Shown: positions 18,910 through 28,407 of the stretch, in pieces | Numbering within the stretch: the first letter of the stretch is position 1 | Layout of the letters: each line of letters starts with the position of its first letter | Origin: a virus | Taxonomy: Duplodnaviria; Heunggongvirae; Uroviricota; Caudoviricetes | Strand: one strand, 5' to 3' | IMG/VR virus record: IMGVR_UViG_2778260996_000020 | Coordinates: 1 to 28,407 of that record | DNA length: 28,407 nt | The notes under the pieces: generated by a model | What the model was told of the DNA's origin: nothing | Database searches by the model: none | Seen by the model: the letters and a program-made list of their open reading frames with translations, nothing else | Made by a program: the position numbers and the translations under genes

Positions 18910-20817
18910 TTAGAACGATGTTACCCAGCTACGGCCTCTATTTGGGCGTCTGGCGATGTTTTGACGTTGCGGTCGTGTGATTGGCTTAGTTTCTTCGATT
19001 TGCTCGTTAGATTGCGATTTAGGAGCTTCTACGGATTCTTCAACAACACGGTTTAAGCTGTCTTTCATTGCAATGAGTTTATCCCATGACATTTTTGAAA
19101 GGACGTAGCGAGAAGCCGCATAGCTATAAACCAGACAGTCGAGAGCCTCGTTTCGGGTACTACCTGGATTTTTCACCCAACGCACGCCAGTAGTAGTACG
19201 CTTGATGGATTCACTCAAAAGCTGATCGAGATAATCATCAGGAACGGTTTCTGATATTTCTAAGCCAATATGAGGATTATCTTTCAGGTTTCTAACCAGC
19301 ATTTCACGAACAGCGGATTTGCCAACGTTAACACCCAACATAAGCAATTCATGACCACCTGTGCGGGTAGGTTTAACCGGAATCACTGGAGCATTACCAG
19401 ATGAACTACCTTTGATCGCGTGTAGGTTCTTCCACTTGCCGCAAATACGGTATCCGGCTTGAGTGAATCGACCGTTCGATGTATCAAGGAAGCTGGCGAG
19501 CATAGGAACACGTTCACCCTTAACGTTATAGAATTTGGTTTTCTTGAAGTTAACCAGACGATCCCAAACAGGTGATTCATATCGTTCACAGTTATGATCG
19601 TAAAAGCTGCGGTGATCCAGAATGTAAACCTTATCTTTCGCTACACCTAAGATGGTAGATTCTGCGCGGTCCAATTGCTGGTCAATTCCTGAACACAAGA
19701 AAATAACGTCATCAGGAATATTCTCGATAGAAACATCTGTTTTGAGTTGTTCCAGTTCATTTGCTTCTACTGCCGTGTCCTGATCGTCGTACACCTTACC
19801 TAATACGGTGTTAAAAAATGATTGTAAATCAAAGGATTGCCACGCATGACTAAAATCAACCACACAAGCGCGGATCGTGCTGAAAGGTGAATACAGACGG
19901 CTGATCCAGAATCCTGCTACCTCACTTTCGCGGGTTGCTCTCCACTCGCCTTGCGCTACTGCCCTGATTCGTTCCCCTTCTGTCCATGCGTTCTTACAGT
20001 GGGGGCAAATATAACGAGCGGTATCAGGATCGGGTAAGTTCTTACCATCGATGTTACGCCATTCAAATTGAACGTTTTCCCACTCGATCACCTGGTGTTC
20101 CCCGCAATGCGGACACGGAACAAAAAACATACGCATATCGCTTGATAACCATTGCTGGTTAATGCTTCCGAGCTTACTGGTCGGGGTACTGGATACGACT
20201 AATCGGCCTTCATCGCCAAAGGTAGTTAAACGGTTAGCAGCCAGTGCCACCGGATCACCTTCTTCTGAGGCTGTAGCAGCATCGATTTCGTCTAGTAGTC
20301 CGACCTTTGCAGTCTTACCGCGCAGGGTTGATGGACTGGTAAGCGATACCATGTACAGGAAGTGATTCGTTTTTAGCTGGAGTTGGTTATTGTTGTTAAC
20401 CGCATTGCGATCATTCTTGTCTGTAACCACGTCTTTTAATGCATCACATGCTTCGATAGACGGTCGGATCTTACCAGCGAGATATTGAGACATTTCTTTA
20501 GCGGTTGATTGTCCGATAATCATATTGCATGGATCGTTAGCCATCTGGTTAAACAGGATGCCATTCAGGATGGTAGTCTTTCCGATCTGCGCACTGGTCA
20601 TCAGAACATACTTTTTCTTGTTCTCAAGGAAAGGAGCATCAATCATACCTTTCTGGAATGACAGCAATTTAACTTTATCCCCAGCTTGAGGACCATCTAC
20701 CAGCACCATATTAGCTTCGCACCATTCCGATGGAAGGAGTTTAGGCGGTGGCGTAATATATTTGGCTGCATTTCTGAGAATCTTTTTTAATTTGGCCTTA
20801 TTAGAAATTAGTTTCAT
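18910..20817 (-). CDS. terL: Terminase large subunit (GpA-like), 635 aa
   Basis: Walker A-like SAQIGKTT and Walker B-like VGLLDEID in the N-terminal ATPase half. Cys-x2-Cys pairs (CPHCGEHQ...CPHCKNAW). Acidic nuclease-like C-terminal half. GAGGGT SD. Confidence 0.85.
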
Positions 20818-23700: not shown

Positions 23701-23923
23701 AGTGGAAATCCTCTAAAAGAAAGTGAATCAAGTAAGTTCACTATTATTTATAACGAGAATTTTTTATCTATTTGGAAGTGATTGGATTCAGTCGGGCTAA
23801 AGCCCTCCTTCATATATTTGATTAAATCATCATCAAAACGAAGAAGTATCTTTAGAATATAAGAATCTTTCTTTTGGAGAAATTATAATCAGGAAGCAAT
23901 TTAGCAACCGAAGGTTGCAATCC

Positions 23924-23969
23924 CGAAGGGATACCAATCACTTTCTAGAAAGTGATTGGTATCCCTTCG
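23924..23969. repeat. 46 bp perfect palindrome
   Basis: CGAAGGGATACCAATCACTTTC-TA-GAAAGTGATTGGTATCCCTTCG; every position is self-complementary. A GCAACCGAAGGTTGC hairpin lies immediately upstream. Confidence 0.9.
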
Positions 23970-24277
23970 TTCGTTTACTAGAATCAGTTAGTAACTAGTA
24001 TTAAATCCCTTTCTAAGAAAATCCTTTCAAAAGCGAGTGAACGCCGTAGGCGTGAACGTGAGCGAAGCGAACTATCCAATCCCTTTCGAATCCTGCTTGC
24101 AGGTCTTAGAAGGTGTTGATGGGCGCTTCGCGCACGGCTACGCCGTATTCTTTTTGCGAGATCTTTCTTGAACGTAGTGAGAGAAAACGAGCAAAAAGGA
24201 GAACGTTAGTTCGAATTTTATATTCTATGGTCTGTGGGGTGAAATGTCTTTCAAGATCATACACTTATGAGATTGAA

Positions 24278-24399
24278 GTGTAGGGTTAGTGTAGGTGTGT
24301 AGGTTTCATAGTGTAGGTTTGAGGGTGTTATAGTGTAGGTTTACTGACTAGTGTAGTGTAGGCCAATACCTTTAAAGCGTAGGTTTGTAGTGTAGGTTT
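24278..24399. repeat. Iteron array: about 8 direct copies of (A)GTGTAGGTTT
   Basis: Copies at about 24278, 24290, 24297, 24311, 24333, 24356, 24377 (GCGTAGGTTT) and 24390. All same orientation, irregular 0-14 bp spacing. Confidence 0.85.
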
Positions 24400-24593
24400 T
24401 TCATCAAAAATTTTGATAGAAAATTCTTGTATATTATTTAACCGGAAAATCACCAAAAATCGCTGTAAATGCATGATTTAAAAAGAATTATCAAAAGGTC
24501 GCCGTGCTATAATAGGTTATAAAGGTTGATAATCGTTATCCGCCATTTTCACACAAAAATTTTGATAGTCATTTCTCGCTTAGGTCAAGTGCA

Positions 24594-24622
24594 TTGACAA
24601 CTGTCAAGGATTATTTTATACT
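24594..24622 (+). promoter_or_regulatory. Near-consensus sigma70 promoter for the 59 aa HTH / 339 aa / 80 aa operon
   Basis: TTGACA (24594-24599), 17 nt spacer, TATACT (24617-24622). The -35 lies inside a TTGACAACTGTCAA palindrome. Confidence 0.55.
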
Positions 24623-24964
24623 TTTTCTCATTGGTAGGGGTTGAAATTTTAGAAACAATCCCCATATTGATGATAAACAAGATTTTTTCGTGTATAAATA
24701 CATGCATGAAATGATTGTTCACTTCTGAAAATCCCCTGATTCACTGTTAACACACACAGCACTGGTTAAACACACAGTGCTTTTTCGATTGAATAATGTA
24801 CGAATTGATTAATTATTAATCTTCTCTTTAGCAATTCGTGCTCCCGCTGATCAGATATACAGTGGTTTTGCAGGGTTTTCTGAAATGACTTTTATAAATA
24901 GAAGTATCGAGGGCGAAAAGCTCTTTTTATTATCCTTATTAATCCACATTTGAGGAATCTACTT

Positions 24965-25260: not shown

Positions 25261-26280
25261 ATGAAAAATTCTAAGCGCATCACCTTCAACCTGTTTATTA
25301 AATCCAACGGCAAACTGAACATTACCGTCATGGAAGGTAAAGCAAGCAAACAAGACAAATCCTTTGAAGTAGTATCCGGTAAGACTCTGACCGAAATGCG
25401 TCAGAATGCTGGCATCAAAGACGGTGCTGAATGGCAGATCACTAACCGTTTCGACAAACGTCACGTTAAACCTACACTGGTAGAAGGTGAATCCGTTTAT
25501 TGCTTCGCTCGTGCTGCTAAAGCCGATGAAACTTACTATCTCGCTGTTGTTAAAACTGCTTCCGGCTTCCGTGCTGTAATGCATCACAAGAGCAAGCGTA
25601 ACGAATACGGCGTAGAGACCCAGGAAGTTGCTAAACGCTTCCGTACTGTTGCTACCGAATCCACTGTAAAAGATGTTTCTGGTACTGTTAACACCACTAA
25701 AGGCGGTTCCTTCTACAACCACGCATTACAGGTTACTTCCTCCTTCTTCTGCAAAAAAGAAGCACAGAAAGAAGTTGCTCCGGTAGTAGTTGAAGAAGTT
25801 AAAGAAGAAGTTGCAGTGGTTGAATCTTCCGAAGTTGAAGCACTGAACGCACGCATTGCTGAACTGGAAGCAGAAATGGCAGCAGTTAAAGCAGAAAACG
25901 CATCTCTGAAAGCTGAACTGTCAGCACAGGAAACCACTTTCGAAGTAGCAGCGGTTGAAGTTGAAGCAGTTGAAGAAAAATCCATTGATGAAGAACTGGA
26001 AGAACTCCTTAACTATCGTTGGGGTAACGGTGAAGAAGTAGAACAGAAAGAAGCTGATCCGGTAGTAGTTCCGGTTCCGGTTGAAGCAGAATCCGCACCA
26101 GTTACCAACTTTGAAACACTGCGCAATAACTTTATGGCTAAATTCAAAACCACTTGGGAAGATACCGAAGAAGAACAAGAAGAGATTGAAGTAAACGAAG
26201 ACGAGATCCGCGAAGCACATATGGCACTGCATGACGCTATCTATGACACCAACTACAGCGCCTACGCATACGCAGCTTAA
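25261..26280 (+). CDS. Hypothetical acidic coiled-coil protein, 339 aa, probable highly expressed early protein
   Basis: AGGAG SD. Codon usage strongly biased toward major E. coli-type codons (CTG, CGT, GAA, AAA, GTT, ACC, TCC), unlike neighbouring genes. Central Ala/Glu coiled coil. Acidic C-terminal third. Confidence 0.6.
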   Translation: MKNSKRITFNLFIKSNGKLNITVMEGKASKQDKSFEVVSGKTLTEMRQNAGIKDGAEWQITNRFDKRHVKPTLVEGESVYCFARAAKADETYYLAVVKTASGFRAVMHHKSKRNEYGVETQEVAKRFRTVATESTVKDVSGTVNTTKGGSFYNHALQVTSSFFCKKEAQKEVAPVVVEEVKEEVAVVESSEVEALNARIAELEAEMAAVKAENASLKAELSAQETTFEVAAVEVEAVEEKSIDEELEELLNYRWGNGEEVEQKEADPVVVPVPVEAESAPVTNFETLRNNFMAKFKTTWEDTEEEQEEIEVNEDEIREAHMALHDAIYDTNYSAYAYAA

Positions 26281-26295
26281 TAGAGGGGTGAATCT

Positions 26296-26538
26296 ATGAT
26301 GAATCAAAACAAAGAATTTCTGGGTAATCTGATGTTAGAAATTACCAAAATGAAAGAAAGAATGGTAGCGATGGAATCAGAGATTAAAACACTTAAAGCT
26401 GATAATAAGGCGTTGAGAAAGTCCTTAAAGCTGATTGATGAGACTAATGCGGTTATGATGGATCATGTATTCCCTGAGTGGCGAAATGAAACTAAACCTA
26501 CACAACATAAGAAACTTACACTTCGAATTGTTGCATAA
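26296..26538 (+). CDS. Hypothetical coiled-coil protein, 80 aa
   Basis: GAGGGG SD. Translationally close to the upstream gene. Heptad-like sequence. Confidence 0.5.
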   Translation: MMNQNKEFLGNLMLEITKMKERMVAMESEIKTLKADNKALRKSLKLIDETNAVMMDHVFPEWRNETKPTQHKKLTLRIVA

Positions 26539-26560
26539 AAAAAAGGACTCCGAAGAGTCC
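26537..26560 (-). terminator. Minus-oriented intrinsic terminator
   Basis: Minus-strand RNA: GGACUC-UUCG-GAGUCC followed by UUUUUUUU. Confidence 0.6.
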
Positions 26561-26636
26561 CTAGTAAGTTTAGGTTAGGTTTGCACAACAAAGATGAGGT
26601 TATAATGAACATAATGCTACATTATTCTTTAAAGCC

Positions 26637-26662
26637 AGAAAAATAACCGCCCCGAAGGGCGG
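26637..26662 (-). terminator. Minus-oriented intrinsic terminator
   Basis: Minus-strand RNA: CCGCCC-UUCG-GGGCGG followed by UUAUUUUUCU. Confidence 0.55.
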
Positions 26663-26821
26663 GAGGATTAATACTCAATCTATACTTGTTATGTTTTTAT
26701 GTTGTATAGATCCTGACTATGAAAACACTGTACTGGAAGTGTGTTTTTATGGCTTTTAATCGGGAATCCTCAAAGAAGATCCCCTGTTAATAACCATAAG
26801 GAGAAAAGGCAGATTACACTA

Positions 26822-26995
26822 TTATTTAGTATCCTTTTTACAGCAACTAAAAAGAATAAACAAAAAGAAGCATACCCAGCCGTAAGGCGTACCGATTAGA
26901 AATTTGAAAAACACCACCAGCGATATAAAAATCAATTTAATGCCAGCGACGATAGTCAAAAACAGCAGAGTAGCAAAGTAGACAAAAAGATCCAT
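26822..26995 (-). CDS. Small hydrophobic membrane protein, 57 aa (not in ORF track)
   Basis: Hand-translated: MDLFVYFATLLFLTIVAGIKLIFISLVVFFKFLIGTPYGWVCFFLFILFSCCKKDTK. AGAGGA SD 7 nt upstream of ATG. Two predicted hydrophobic helices. Confidence 0.4.
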   Translation of the reverse strand: MDLFVYFATLLFLTIVAGIKLIFISLVVFFKFLIGTPYGWVCFFLFILFSCCKKDTK

Positions 26996-27048
26996 AGATA
27001 ATCCTCTTTGAAAACGACCATCATCTATAGTTCAATTCATCGATTTAA

Positions 27049-27150
27049 TTAATGATACTTGAAAGCGTTACACAAAGTAGAAATGCCAATATGTGCCAGT
27101 GAATATACGATAGTTAATCCTACAGCCAGATAAATCAAAAATTCAACCAT
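27049..27150 (-). CDS. Small hydrophobic peptide, 33 aa (not in ORF track)
   Basis: Hand-translated: MVEFLIYLAVGLTIVYSLAHIGIFYFVNAFKYH. GAGGA SD 8 nt upstream. Single predicted TM helix. Sits directly after a hairpin terminator. Confidence 0.3.
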   Translation of the reverse strand: MVEFLIYLAVGLTIVYSLAHIGISTLCNAFKYH

Positions 27151-27170
27151 AGGTAAATCCTCAAATAAGA

Positions 27171-27199
27171 AAAAGGTTAGCGGGGGATGTTCTCCCCCG
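27171..27199 (-). terminator. Weak terminator downstream of Nu1-like gene
   Basis: 7 bp GC stem (CGGGGGA/UCCCCCG) followed, after CUAACC, by UUUUUCUUAUUU on the minus strand. Confidence 0.4.
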
Positions 27200-27250
27200 T
27201 AGACGTTGACCAGCTCAACATCCTTCACGTATATATTTAGTATCTAATTT

Positions 27251-27802
27251 TTAAGACACATCAAATTCATCGTCTTCTTCTGGTTCTTGTTCCGGTTCAT
27301 CCATTAATGGTAATTCTTCTTCCTCGTCTTCTCCCAAATCTGCATTTTCGAACAAGTCCCCTACTTCATTTAAACGACGCTCGATAATCTCTCTTAGCTT
27401 ATTCTTCAATGTTTTCTGGTCATTGGCAGATTCGAGAATTTCTAGGGCATCGATTGTGGCGATCTGCAAAATAGTCTGCTTCACTTTCCCGCAATATTCC
27501 GCTAGCTCCTGCTCCACATACCCGACGGGAATCAGGAGATTCATCGCTTCCTGGTTCTCTCGTTCGGCTGCATCTGCTAATGCTCTCTCACGGCGTAATT
27601 TCTCTACGTCGATTTGTTCCTTGACAGTAGTTTCTTTAAGCGGGTTGATGATATTTTTCAAGACCCATTCTGTTCCTTCTTTGGCTGGCACGCGGCGGGT
27701 ATTGGTATTAAATGGCATTCCTCGTTCTTGCCATTTCTTAGCGGCGTTAATTGTATAGCCGTATAAACGGGAAATTTCTGTAAGGGTTAATTCTTCTTTC
27801 AT
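27251..27802 (-). CDS. Nu1-like DNA-binding protein (candidate terminase small subunit), ~183 aa
   Basis: Start placed at second ATG (27802), which has a GGAGGA SD. N-terminal LTEISRLYGYTINAAKKWQERGMPF resembles the winged-HTH of lambda Nu1 (IRTIQNWQEQGMPV). Followed by EKLRRE coiled coil and acidic C-terminus. Confidence 0.5.
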   Translation of the reverse strand: MKEELTLTEISRLYGYTINAAKKWQERGMPFNTNTRRVPAKEGTEWVLKNIINPLKETTVKEQIDVEKLRRERALADAAERENQEAMNLLIPVGYVEQELAEYCGKVKQTILQIATIDALEILESANDQKTLKNKLREIIERRLNEVGDLFENADLGEDEEEELPLMDEPEQEPEEDDEFDVS

Positions 27803-28101
27803 CCGGTTATCCTCCATTAAATTTGCGTAAAATTATTTATCTGATCTGCGCATTCAGGAGAGCGCCTAAAACGCTTTATAACGAAGGGAAAGATCGAGGC
27901 ATGGAAAGGGATTGGCGGGTGTTAATAGTCGCGTAGCGACCGCGCTGGTGGGCTGCACTGCACCTGTTTTGAAATCTCACACGTACATCAAAAACCGGGG
28001 TGCCGAAAACTCCCTTTATTTCACCCGTGGAACAGTACCTTTTGATTTGGTCAAGTCTTTTTTATAAATAATCGAAAATATTTTTCACGCGAGGGCAAAT
28101 C

Positions 28102-28407
28102 ATGAAGACTAAAGATATTAAGATTGAATTTGAAACTGTTGATGACGTTCGGGAACATCGCATTGATTCTACTGGCTGCATCTTCCAGCTTACTAACTCC
28201 CCTATTGGATTGATTATCTATGTAGCAGAAGATGACGTGTACGCTATATGGGATGGACAGGATGAGTTTAAAGGCGGGAATAGCCATCTGATCAATACTC
28301 ATGAGGGATTTGATCCGACTCCTGTCTGTATGCTTGCTTATCACGTAACACTGGATGAACTACCGGAAGCAAGCGCGCGTATCCGTAGAATGAAAGACAT
28401 TAAGTGA
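28102..28407 (+). CDS. Hypothetical protein, 101 aa
   Basis: Complete ORF with GAGGG SD. Stop is the last codon of the window. Confidence 0.45.
   Translation: MKTKDIKIEFETVDDVREHRIDSTGCIFQLTNSPIGLIIYVAEDDVYAIWDGQDEFKGGNSHLINTHEGFDPTPVCMLAYHVTLDELPEASARIRRMKDIK

Follow-up and report, generated by a model that had tools for sequence, protein, structure and literature searches.

Two small hydrophobic genes behind terS in an Escherichia coli prophage family: a membrane-peptide cassette and its possible roles

Small phage-encoded membrane proteins are a familiar class, and several described members provide points of comparison for the locus considered here. Holins of classes I and II include lambda S105, P2 Y and T7 gp17.5, and two-gene holin or holin/antiholin sets are represented by LydA/LydB of phage P1, Y/LysA of P2 and XhlA/XhlB of Bacillus; lysis genes can adjoin the gene for the terminase small subunit (terS), as they do in T7 (17.5, 18, 18.5) and in lambda (S, R, Rz, cos, Nu1). 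T4 Imm and gp15, a moron product of HK97, are membrane proteins of superinfection exclusion that have promoters of their own, with expression in the prophage state or at an early stage of infection. The subject of this report is a pair of open reading frames (ORFs), ORF-A and ORF-B, on the minus strand of a 28,407-nucleotide (nt) stretch of tailed-phage DNA (IMG/VR record IMGVR_UViG_2778260996_000020, positions 1 to 28,407; hereafter, the window). These ORFs lie behind terS and make up a cassette that, in related prophages, is exchanged for a single gene of 94 amino acids (aa). What is new here is a pair of uncharacterised members of this class.

Two small genes kept by purifying selection

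The first-pass annotation of the window had pointed to two hydrophobic minus-strand ORFs of 57 and 33 aa, each preceded by a good Shine-Dalgarno sequence, and both are indeed present:

27049-27150, minus strand: ORF-A, ATG start, 33 aa, MVEFLIYLAVGLTIVYSLAHIGISTLCNAFKYH; one hydrophobic helix
26822-26995, minus strand: ORF-B, ATG start, 57 aa, MDLFVYFATLLFLTIVAGIKLIFISLVVFFKFLIGTPYGWVCFFLFILFSCCKKDTK; helical hairpin
27158-27162, minus strand: ribosome-binding site of ORF-A, GAGGA, 7 nt 5' of the ATG, read from the sequence
27002-27007, minus strand: ribosome-binding site of ORF-B, AGAGGA, 6 nt 5' of the ATG, likewise read from the sequence

The pattern of substitutions is decisive for the coding status of the pair. 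Among 29 intact copies of the cassette, with 13 distinct sequences per ORF, 24 of the 40 segregating sites in the two ORFs occupy codon position 3 (binomial p=5e-4). ORF-A has 17 such sites, 10 at position 3 and 1 at position 2, with 12 synonymous and 5 non-synonymous substitutions; ORF-B has 23, of which 14 are at position 3, with 13 synonymous and 10 non-synonymous substitutions. The ratio of non-synonymous to synonymous polymorphism (pN/pS) is 0.14 for ORF-A and 0.20 for ORF-B in the proposed frames, compared with values of at least 0.35, or undefined, in the other two frames, and both proposed frames are open in all 29 copies. Both peptides are kept by purifying selection, and we are confident that ORF-A and ORF-B are real protein-coding genes. 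Hydrophobicity, by itself, is no more than chance would produce: the window has 126 ATG-initiated ORFs that are 30 aa or longer, and 35 of them clear the hydropathy cut-off. Among these 126, only ORF-A and ORF-B combine such a pass with a 5-mer ribosome-binding site, and the 429-nt gap in which they lie contains no other ORFs.

The grand average of hydropathy (GRAVY) is 1.21 for ORF-A and 1.56 for ORF-B. The AlphaFold model of ORF-B consists of helices 2-35 and 37-55, with a mean predicted local distance difference test (pLDDT) score of 80, and ORF-A contains a single hydrophobic stretch, in agreement with the one or two helices anticipated from the first reading. ORF-B ends in the short basic sequence KKDTK and ORF-A in NAFKYH; the N-terminus of ORF-A is predicted to lie outside and its C-terminus (K31) inside.

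The first reading also held that the two ORFs had been missed by the ORF track, and this extends to reference annotation: in 30 of 30 complete E. coli genomes carrying the pair, RefSeq, as annotated by the Prokaryotic Genome Annotation Pipeline (PGAP), has nothing under it. Gene callers used in other collections do call the 57-aa ORF-B; a public assembly collection has 1357 blocks that list this exact protein, and in 10 of 10 places examined its gene follows immediately on the terS-like gene in an E. coli prophage. Here, selection maintains two genes that the reference annotation omits from every complete E. coli genome carrying them, a concrete case of the annotation blind spot for very small membrane proteins.

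A 59-aa version of ORF-A extended to a GTG start (27049-27228) was considered and rejected. The extension crosses a hairpin, and the stretch 5' of the ORF-A ATG is 96, 97, 98 or 100 nt long among copies, so that the upstream length varies out of frame. A separate observation concerns the copy in NZ_CP043414.1 (L044), a prophage remnant beside an IS3 pseudogene, in which a 1-nt deletion frameshifts ORF-A and ORF-B has three amino-acid changes; this damage is consistent with relaxed selection after the death of the phage.

One locus, two alternative cassettes

The locus exists in two forms with identical flanks, one carrying the ORF-A/ORF-B pair and the other a single 94-aa ORF. The exchanged segment extends from the hairpin after terS to the last two codons of ORF-B (TK-stop is common to both forms). 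Among the 63 complete genomes with terS, 30 contain the pair and 31 contain the 94-aa gene; the exceptions to this either-or include a deleted remnant (L041) and copies with ISApl1 or mcr-1 insertions (L040, L045), and none of the intact prophages had an empty allele.

Unlike the pair, the 94-aa gene is annotated everywhere by PGAP, as a hypothetical protein (representatives WP_032192671.1, WP_063077181.1 and WP_000190126.1). It, too, is under purifying selection (pN/pS 0.25), and identity among its variants is 78-99%, the changes being conservative and the charges in the loops invariant. The AlphaFold model of the protein, which is of low confidence (pLDDT 65), contains helices 2-22, 26-61 and 66-92, and its C-terminus is KQTK. 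The pair and the 94-aa protein are alike in locus, strand, total length (90 vs 94 aa) and order of helices, and both are confined to E. coli. Under the positive-inside rule, a layout with the N-terminus out and the C-terminus in is probably common to both forms, and the break between ORF-A and ORF-B would then fall in a cytoplasmic loop.

By eye, the pair could be taken for a split version of the 94-aa gene. Homology as the basis of this resemblance is not supported: BLASTP finds no match between the pair and the 94-aa protein, hhalign yields p=0.11, and local alignment of the DNA interiors of the cassettes yields z=-0.3. A global protein alignment reaches a z of about 4 against plain shuffles, and only 1.0-1.7 when the helix/loop pattern is kept in the shuffles. 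With no demonstrable homology, the two forms are positional and architectural analogues only. As such, they provide a natural comparison, at one locus, of what seems to be the same three-helix membrane module built from two chains or from one.

The cassette has a history of its own. Cassettes 100% identical to that of the window sit behind terS alleles that are 88-91% identical to the window's terS, and the terS alleles nearest to the window's carry the 94-aa form; this discordance indicates that the cassette recombines independently of terS. When one pair-type prophage is compared with one 94-aa-type prophage, the lysis region is the same in both, so that the type of cassette does not track the endolysin module.

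Mobile elements have repeatedly hit this short terS-cassette region (L006, L032, L040, L045). Insertion sequence (IS) elements are inserted exactly at the hairpin after terS (equivalent to window 27181-27199) in L006 and L032; in strain HeN100, ORF-B has given way to an mcr-1/pap2 unit, and in strain PE15 it is cut short by ISApl1.

Transcription, RNA structure and the surrounding prophage

The surroundings of the pair contain one gene and several RNA signals that bear on its expression:

27251-27817, minus strand: terS, terminase small subunit, 188 aa, phrog_57 (E=7e-16 over residues 2-173)
27201-27223 and G+C-rich 27181-27199, minus strand: two tandem RNA hairpins between the terS stop codon and ORF-A, from folding
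26981-27041, minus strand: hairpin over the ORF-B start, -17.5 kcal/mol, z=-3.0; 2 of 200 shuffles fold as well
26647-26662, minus strand: intrinsic terminator after ORF-B, CCGCCC-TTCG-GGGCGG and a T-run, from a terminator scan
26543-26562, minus strand: a second, terminator-like hairpin with a T-run, from the terminator scan

The pair had originally been placed between a Nu1-like gene and minus-strand terminators. The position holds; the gene is identified as terS by phrog_57, and one terS allele is labelled 'terminase small subunit' by PGAP, with the match to Pfam Phage_Nu1 being faint (E=0.017). The hairpin at 26543-26562 lies directly 3' of the stop codon of a convergent plus-strand gene of 80 aa. 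The G+C content of the cassette region is 30-39%, vs 40-50% in terS.

The fold of 27130-27255 on the minus strand is stable (-34.1 kcal/mol, z=-3.5), and sequence identity between the two cassette types gives out just past the hairpin that follows terS, which is the left boundary of the exchangeable cassette. The terminator scan does not call the hairpins at 27181-27223, and this is no canonical terminator because 6 nt separate the G+C-rich stem from the start of the U-run. In the G+C-rich hairpin, the loop of 5 nt (27187-27191) is inverted relative to copy L013 (GAACA vs TGTTC, minus strand), independently of cassette type. From the hairpin to the ATG of ORF-A there are only about 30 nt, and a consensus scan of the minus strand from 26200 to 28407 found no sigma-70-like site. 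With no promoter-like site before it, the pair probably lacks a promoter of its own and would be co-transcribed with terS as a terS/ORF-A/ORF-B unit.

The second structure, at 26981-27041, comprises the spacer and the first codons of ORF-B, pairs the ORF-B AUG (26993-26995) and part of its ribosome-binding site, and has its base 7 nt past the stop codon of ORF-A. Nothing else in the region is as well conserved as the 53-nt spacer between ORF-A and ORF-B: across 22 distinct sequences, only 2 of its sites vary, and both lie in the loop of the hairpin. The share of variable columns is 13-16% for the ORFs, 30% for terS and 19-33% for the flanks. The stem is invariant, so that covariation offers no evidence for or against the hairpin. 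The structure may restrain translation of ORF-B or couple it to that of ORF-A; coupling is plausible from the layout of the sequence, although a ribosome that terminates on ORF-A would touch no more than the outermost base pairs of the structure. On the opposite strand, there is a single, weak promoter-like site (26904-26932; 1 found vs 6.0 expected by chance), the terminator scan finds no terminator, and the fold is unremarkable (z=0.17).

The window is part of an E. coli prophage, complete copies of which are about 36 kb long; prophages of the window's type are inserted within ycdX, and those in other strains within hicB. A large serine recombinase (phrog_95, E=4e-63) is encoded at the far end, and a long head-tail operon begins with the gene for a GpA-type large terminase subunit (terL; window 18910-20817). 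The gap of about 6.4 kb between terS and terL contains oppositely oriented genes and a Rha/Ant gene, and PGAP recognises no replication or repressor genes in the prophage. As judged by terS, the family is rare, with members in 63 of 5426 complete E. coli genomes, and it is isolated. A DNA search with the region, in near and distant modes, found no match among 50,697 phage records, terS and terL queries found no relative in a set of one reference genome per species, and a literature search on prophages and ycdX brought up nothing relevant. The closest cultured phage, DCP80, is distant (terL 43% and terS 32% identity), and no small membrane ORFs were found behind its terS-like gene, so that it is uninformative here.

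Several further features of the prophage can be mentioned. A G+C-rich stretch at about 27850-28000 may hold cos. A gene of 101 aa on the plus strand (28102-28407) is divergent to terS and faces the attachment site. After excision and circularisation, this gene would have the same direction as genes of 90, 128 and 135 aa and the serine recombinase gene (L037 10041-13175), so that expression of the recombinase could depend on the circular form. Within the window, about 1.25 kb between divergent genes (23701-24949) contain no convincing ORF, and this stretch includes iteron-like direct repeats at 24287-24399 (T[TC]ATAGTGTAGGTTT, 4-6 copies) as well as a palindrome of 46 bp, without mismatches, at 23924-23969; it is a candidate for the replication origin or operator region of the prophage.

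Possible functions and described counterparts

The suggestion in the first-pass annotation that lysis genes may lie elsewhere is borne out for the endolysin: in complete copies, this enzyme, a 117-aa Peptidase_M15_3 protein (E=3.5e-28; phrog_894, E=1.4e-45), is encoded beyond the tail genes, outside the window. This M15 endolysin has no hydrophobic N-terminus or signal sequence, its direct neighbours are soluble, with no membrane protein beside it, and no lipoprotein fit to be an outer-membrane spanin was seen near it (L037 14294-16560). No holin family was recognised anywhere in the prophage, and the only small membrane proteins of the phage are those of the terS-linked cassette and a set of two, a 92-aa protein (N-terminal helix and coiled coil) and a 56-aa hydrophobic protein, encoded 1.1-1.5 kb upstream of the endolysin in the same operon and present in the 94-aa-type prophage as well.

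Searches for relatives of the cassette proteins lead back to E. coli. Word-indexed protein searches return only E. coli sequences, at identities of at least 95% for ORF-B and at least 78% for the 94-aa protein, and an exhaustive search with an ORF-B profile hidden Markov model against 1.84 billion representative proteins returns its own cluster only. A BFVD fold search with the low-confidence 94-aa model (pLDDT 65) gives no match with E below 1, PADLOC has no models that match the three peptides, and Rfam has no match, antitoxin RNAs included, to the region or to the whole window. For the holin-like and toxin-like candidacies put forward in the first reading, most hallmarks of membership among holins and type I toxins are missing, as detailed below.

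By elimination and from context, we tentatively put first, short of an even chance, the possibility that the cassette is a late-made, restrained, membrane-active module that sets the timing of lysis, either a holin or a modulator of one. The grounds are that the endolysin lacks a signal sequence and has no recognised holin beside it, and that the cassette appears to be expressed late, to be tightly restrained and to be almost never absent. The cassette proteins are small and have at least one predicted transmembrane helix, by hydropathy and AlphaFold; unrelated holins commonly replace one another between phages, which we count toward a role in lysis, as we do the T7 and lambda precedents for lysis genes beside terS. 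Under this proposal, the pair would be the two-chain counterpart of the 94-aa three-helix protein, with ORF-A supplying helix 1 and ORF-B helices 2 and 3 and with the break placed in the cytoplasmic loop. Transcription from terS would read through the weak hairpins that follow it and into the pair, which would be made whenever terS is, late in lytic growth; ORF-B would be made sparingly, or only once ribosomes finishing ORF-A loosen the hairpin. The RNA hairpin built into the two-chain form could, in this way, set the ratio of the chains.

A number of observations weigh against a role in lysis. On the prophage map, about 30 kb separate the endolysin gene from the cassette, and the two belong to different transcription units, although the circular genome brings them to within about 6 kb of each other across attP; neither adjacency to the endolysin nor a common lysis cassette is observed. 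The 92-aa and 56-aa proteins are holin candidates at least as good as the cassette and better placed. ORF-A, ORF-B and the 94-aa protein match no family in Pfam, PHROGs or NCBIfam, holins included; the cassette has no dual-start motif; and in place of a hydrophilic, highly charged C-terminal domain, ORF-B has a tail of 5 residues. The failure of BLASTP, hhalign, DNA alignment and architecture-preserving shuffles to connect the two cassette forms also counts here. The persistence of the cassette may only mean tight linkage to terS in a young lineage of low diversity, and late co-transcription and translational coupling are predictions from the nucleotide sequence.

Almost as likely as a role in lysis is one in superinfection exclusion or in modulating the host. 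The cassette may encode a membrane protein of accessory function that targets the host envelope, for example, by blocking DNA entry of related phages, with the two cassette types as alternative specificities, or that modulates a host inner-membrane protein. The anatomy of the locus is moron-like in that it comprises two unrelated alleles with sharp boundaries, lower G+C content and terminators of their own, which agrees with the Hendrix/Juhala description of an insert that varies between conserved genes and has its own terminator and a deviating base composition. The independent recombination of the cassette, its restriction to a single E. coli prophage lineage, with no wider family, and its intactness in the prophage remnants L004 and L009 point in the same direction, as does the habit of very hydrophobic small peptides, which often bind larger membrane proteins (AcrZ, MgtS, T4 Imm, HK97 gp15). 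However, the consensus scan reveals neither the promoter typical of morons nor any promoter-like site for expression from a repressed prophage, and PADLOC finds no match. Morons typically occur in only some of a set of related phages, but intact prophages of this family show no empty allele, and a hairpin that throttles ORF-B is unexpected for a protective protein.

A narrower form of the lysis proposal, which we regard as rather doubtful, is that ORF-A and ORF-B together are the holin of the phage: a naturally split, two-chain, class-I-like three-helix holin, in which the coupling hairpin would set stoichiometry and timing. Such a holin would be encoded behind terS, away from the endolysin, and be interchangeable with the single-chain 94-aa form in sister phages.

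It is improbable that the cassette is a type I-like toxic peptide system, an addiction or abortive-infection module in which ORF-B would be a membrane-depolarising toxin silenced by mRNA structure and ORF-A a coupled leader, as mok is for hok. At 57 and 33 aa, ORF-B and ORF-A are both hydrophobic peptides below the limit of about 60 aa for such toxins; ORF-B is extremely hydrophobic, its start is sequestered in a stable, invariant hairpin just past an upstream ORF, and it is kept in prophage remnants beside IS elements. Yet, ORF-A is no mere leader but a hydrophobic peptide that purifying selection has conserved, the consensus promoter scan gives no sign of an independent transcription unit, and Rfam contains no matching antitoxin RNA, although one of an undescribed type may exist. 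The sole plus-strand promoter-like site is weak and fewer such sites occur than expected by chance, with no plus-strand terminator; furthermore, the alternative allele encodes an ordinary 94-aa three-helix protein, and copies broken by a frameshift or by ISApl1 are tolerated.

Decay is a still poorer explanation: that the two ORFs are the non-functional halves of a 94-aa-type gene broken by mutation, as their close summed length, the same order of three helices, the shared TK-stop codons and flanks and the global alignment score against plain shuffles might suggest, is very unlikely, given that the similarity disappears under the architecture-preserving null and in DNA, that both halves are under purifying selection and open in all 29 intact copies, that ORF-B has its own ATG and well-spaced ribosome-binding site, and that the spacer is the most, not the least, conserved stretch of the region. 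Finally, the possibility that these are not genes at all, merely chance ORFs in a T-rich spacer, can be dismissed with hardly a reservation: the frequency of hydrophobic chance ORFs in the window and the silence of PGAP speak for it, but the codon-position bias, the low pN/pS confined to the proposed frames and the ribosome-binding sites on both of the sole ORFs in the gap speak against it. The remaining probability falls to some other role at the membrane.

Should the cassette be a lysis-timing module, it would represent the missing holin of an uncharacterised family of temperate E. coli phages with a serine recombinase; should it serve in exclusion, it would be a new exclusion family. In either case, the finding is a modest addition that involves no new principle and holds little surprise for a phage biologist.

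Among the systems described at the outset and hok/mok, each shares part of its organisation with the cassette. As in hok/mok, a hydrophobic peptide of less than 60 aa, here ORF-B, has its initiation region locked in an mRNA structure past another frame; unlike in hok/mok, the cassette has no signal of an antisense RNA and no promoter of its own, ORF-A is a conserved membrane peptide and not an overlapping leader, and the allelic partner is a protein of 94 aa. The comparison with T4 Imm and HK97 gp15 extends to small inner-membrane proteins and, at the level of the genome, to a compositionally distinct, exchangeable insert with its own terminator between conserved genes, but the cassette shows no promoter-like site, no sequence similarity to these proteins and no PADLOC match. 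The cassette differs from holins in its lack of a family match, its 5-residue tail, the absence of a dual start and its position away from the endolysin and its operon, in a prophage that has other holin candidates. In common with holins, it encodes small peptides with one to three transmembrane helices, a predicted N-out/C-in three-helix layout in the 94-aa allele and in ORF-A and ORF-B taken together, probable late expression with an mRNA structure that would restrain translation, and non-homologous replacement between related phages; and it is located near terS, as are the lysis genes of T7 and, across cos, those of lambda.

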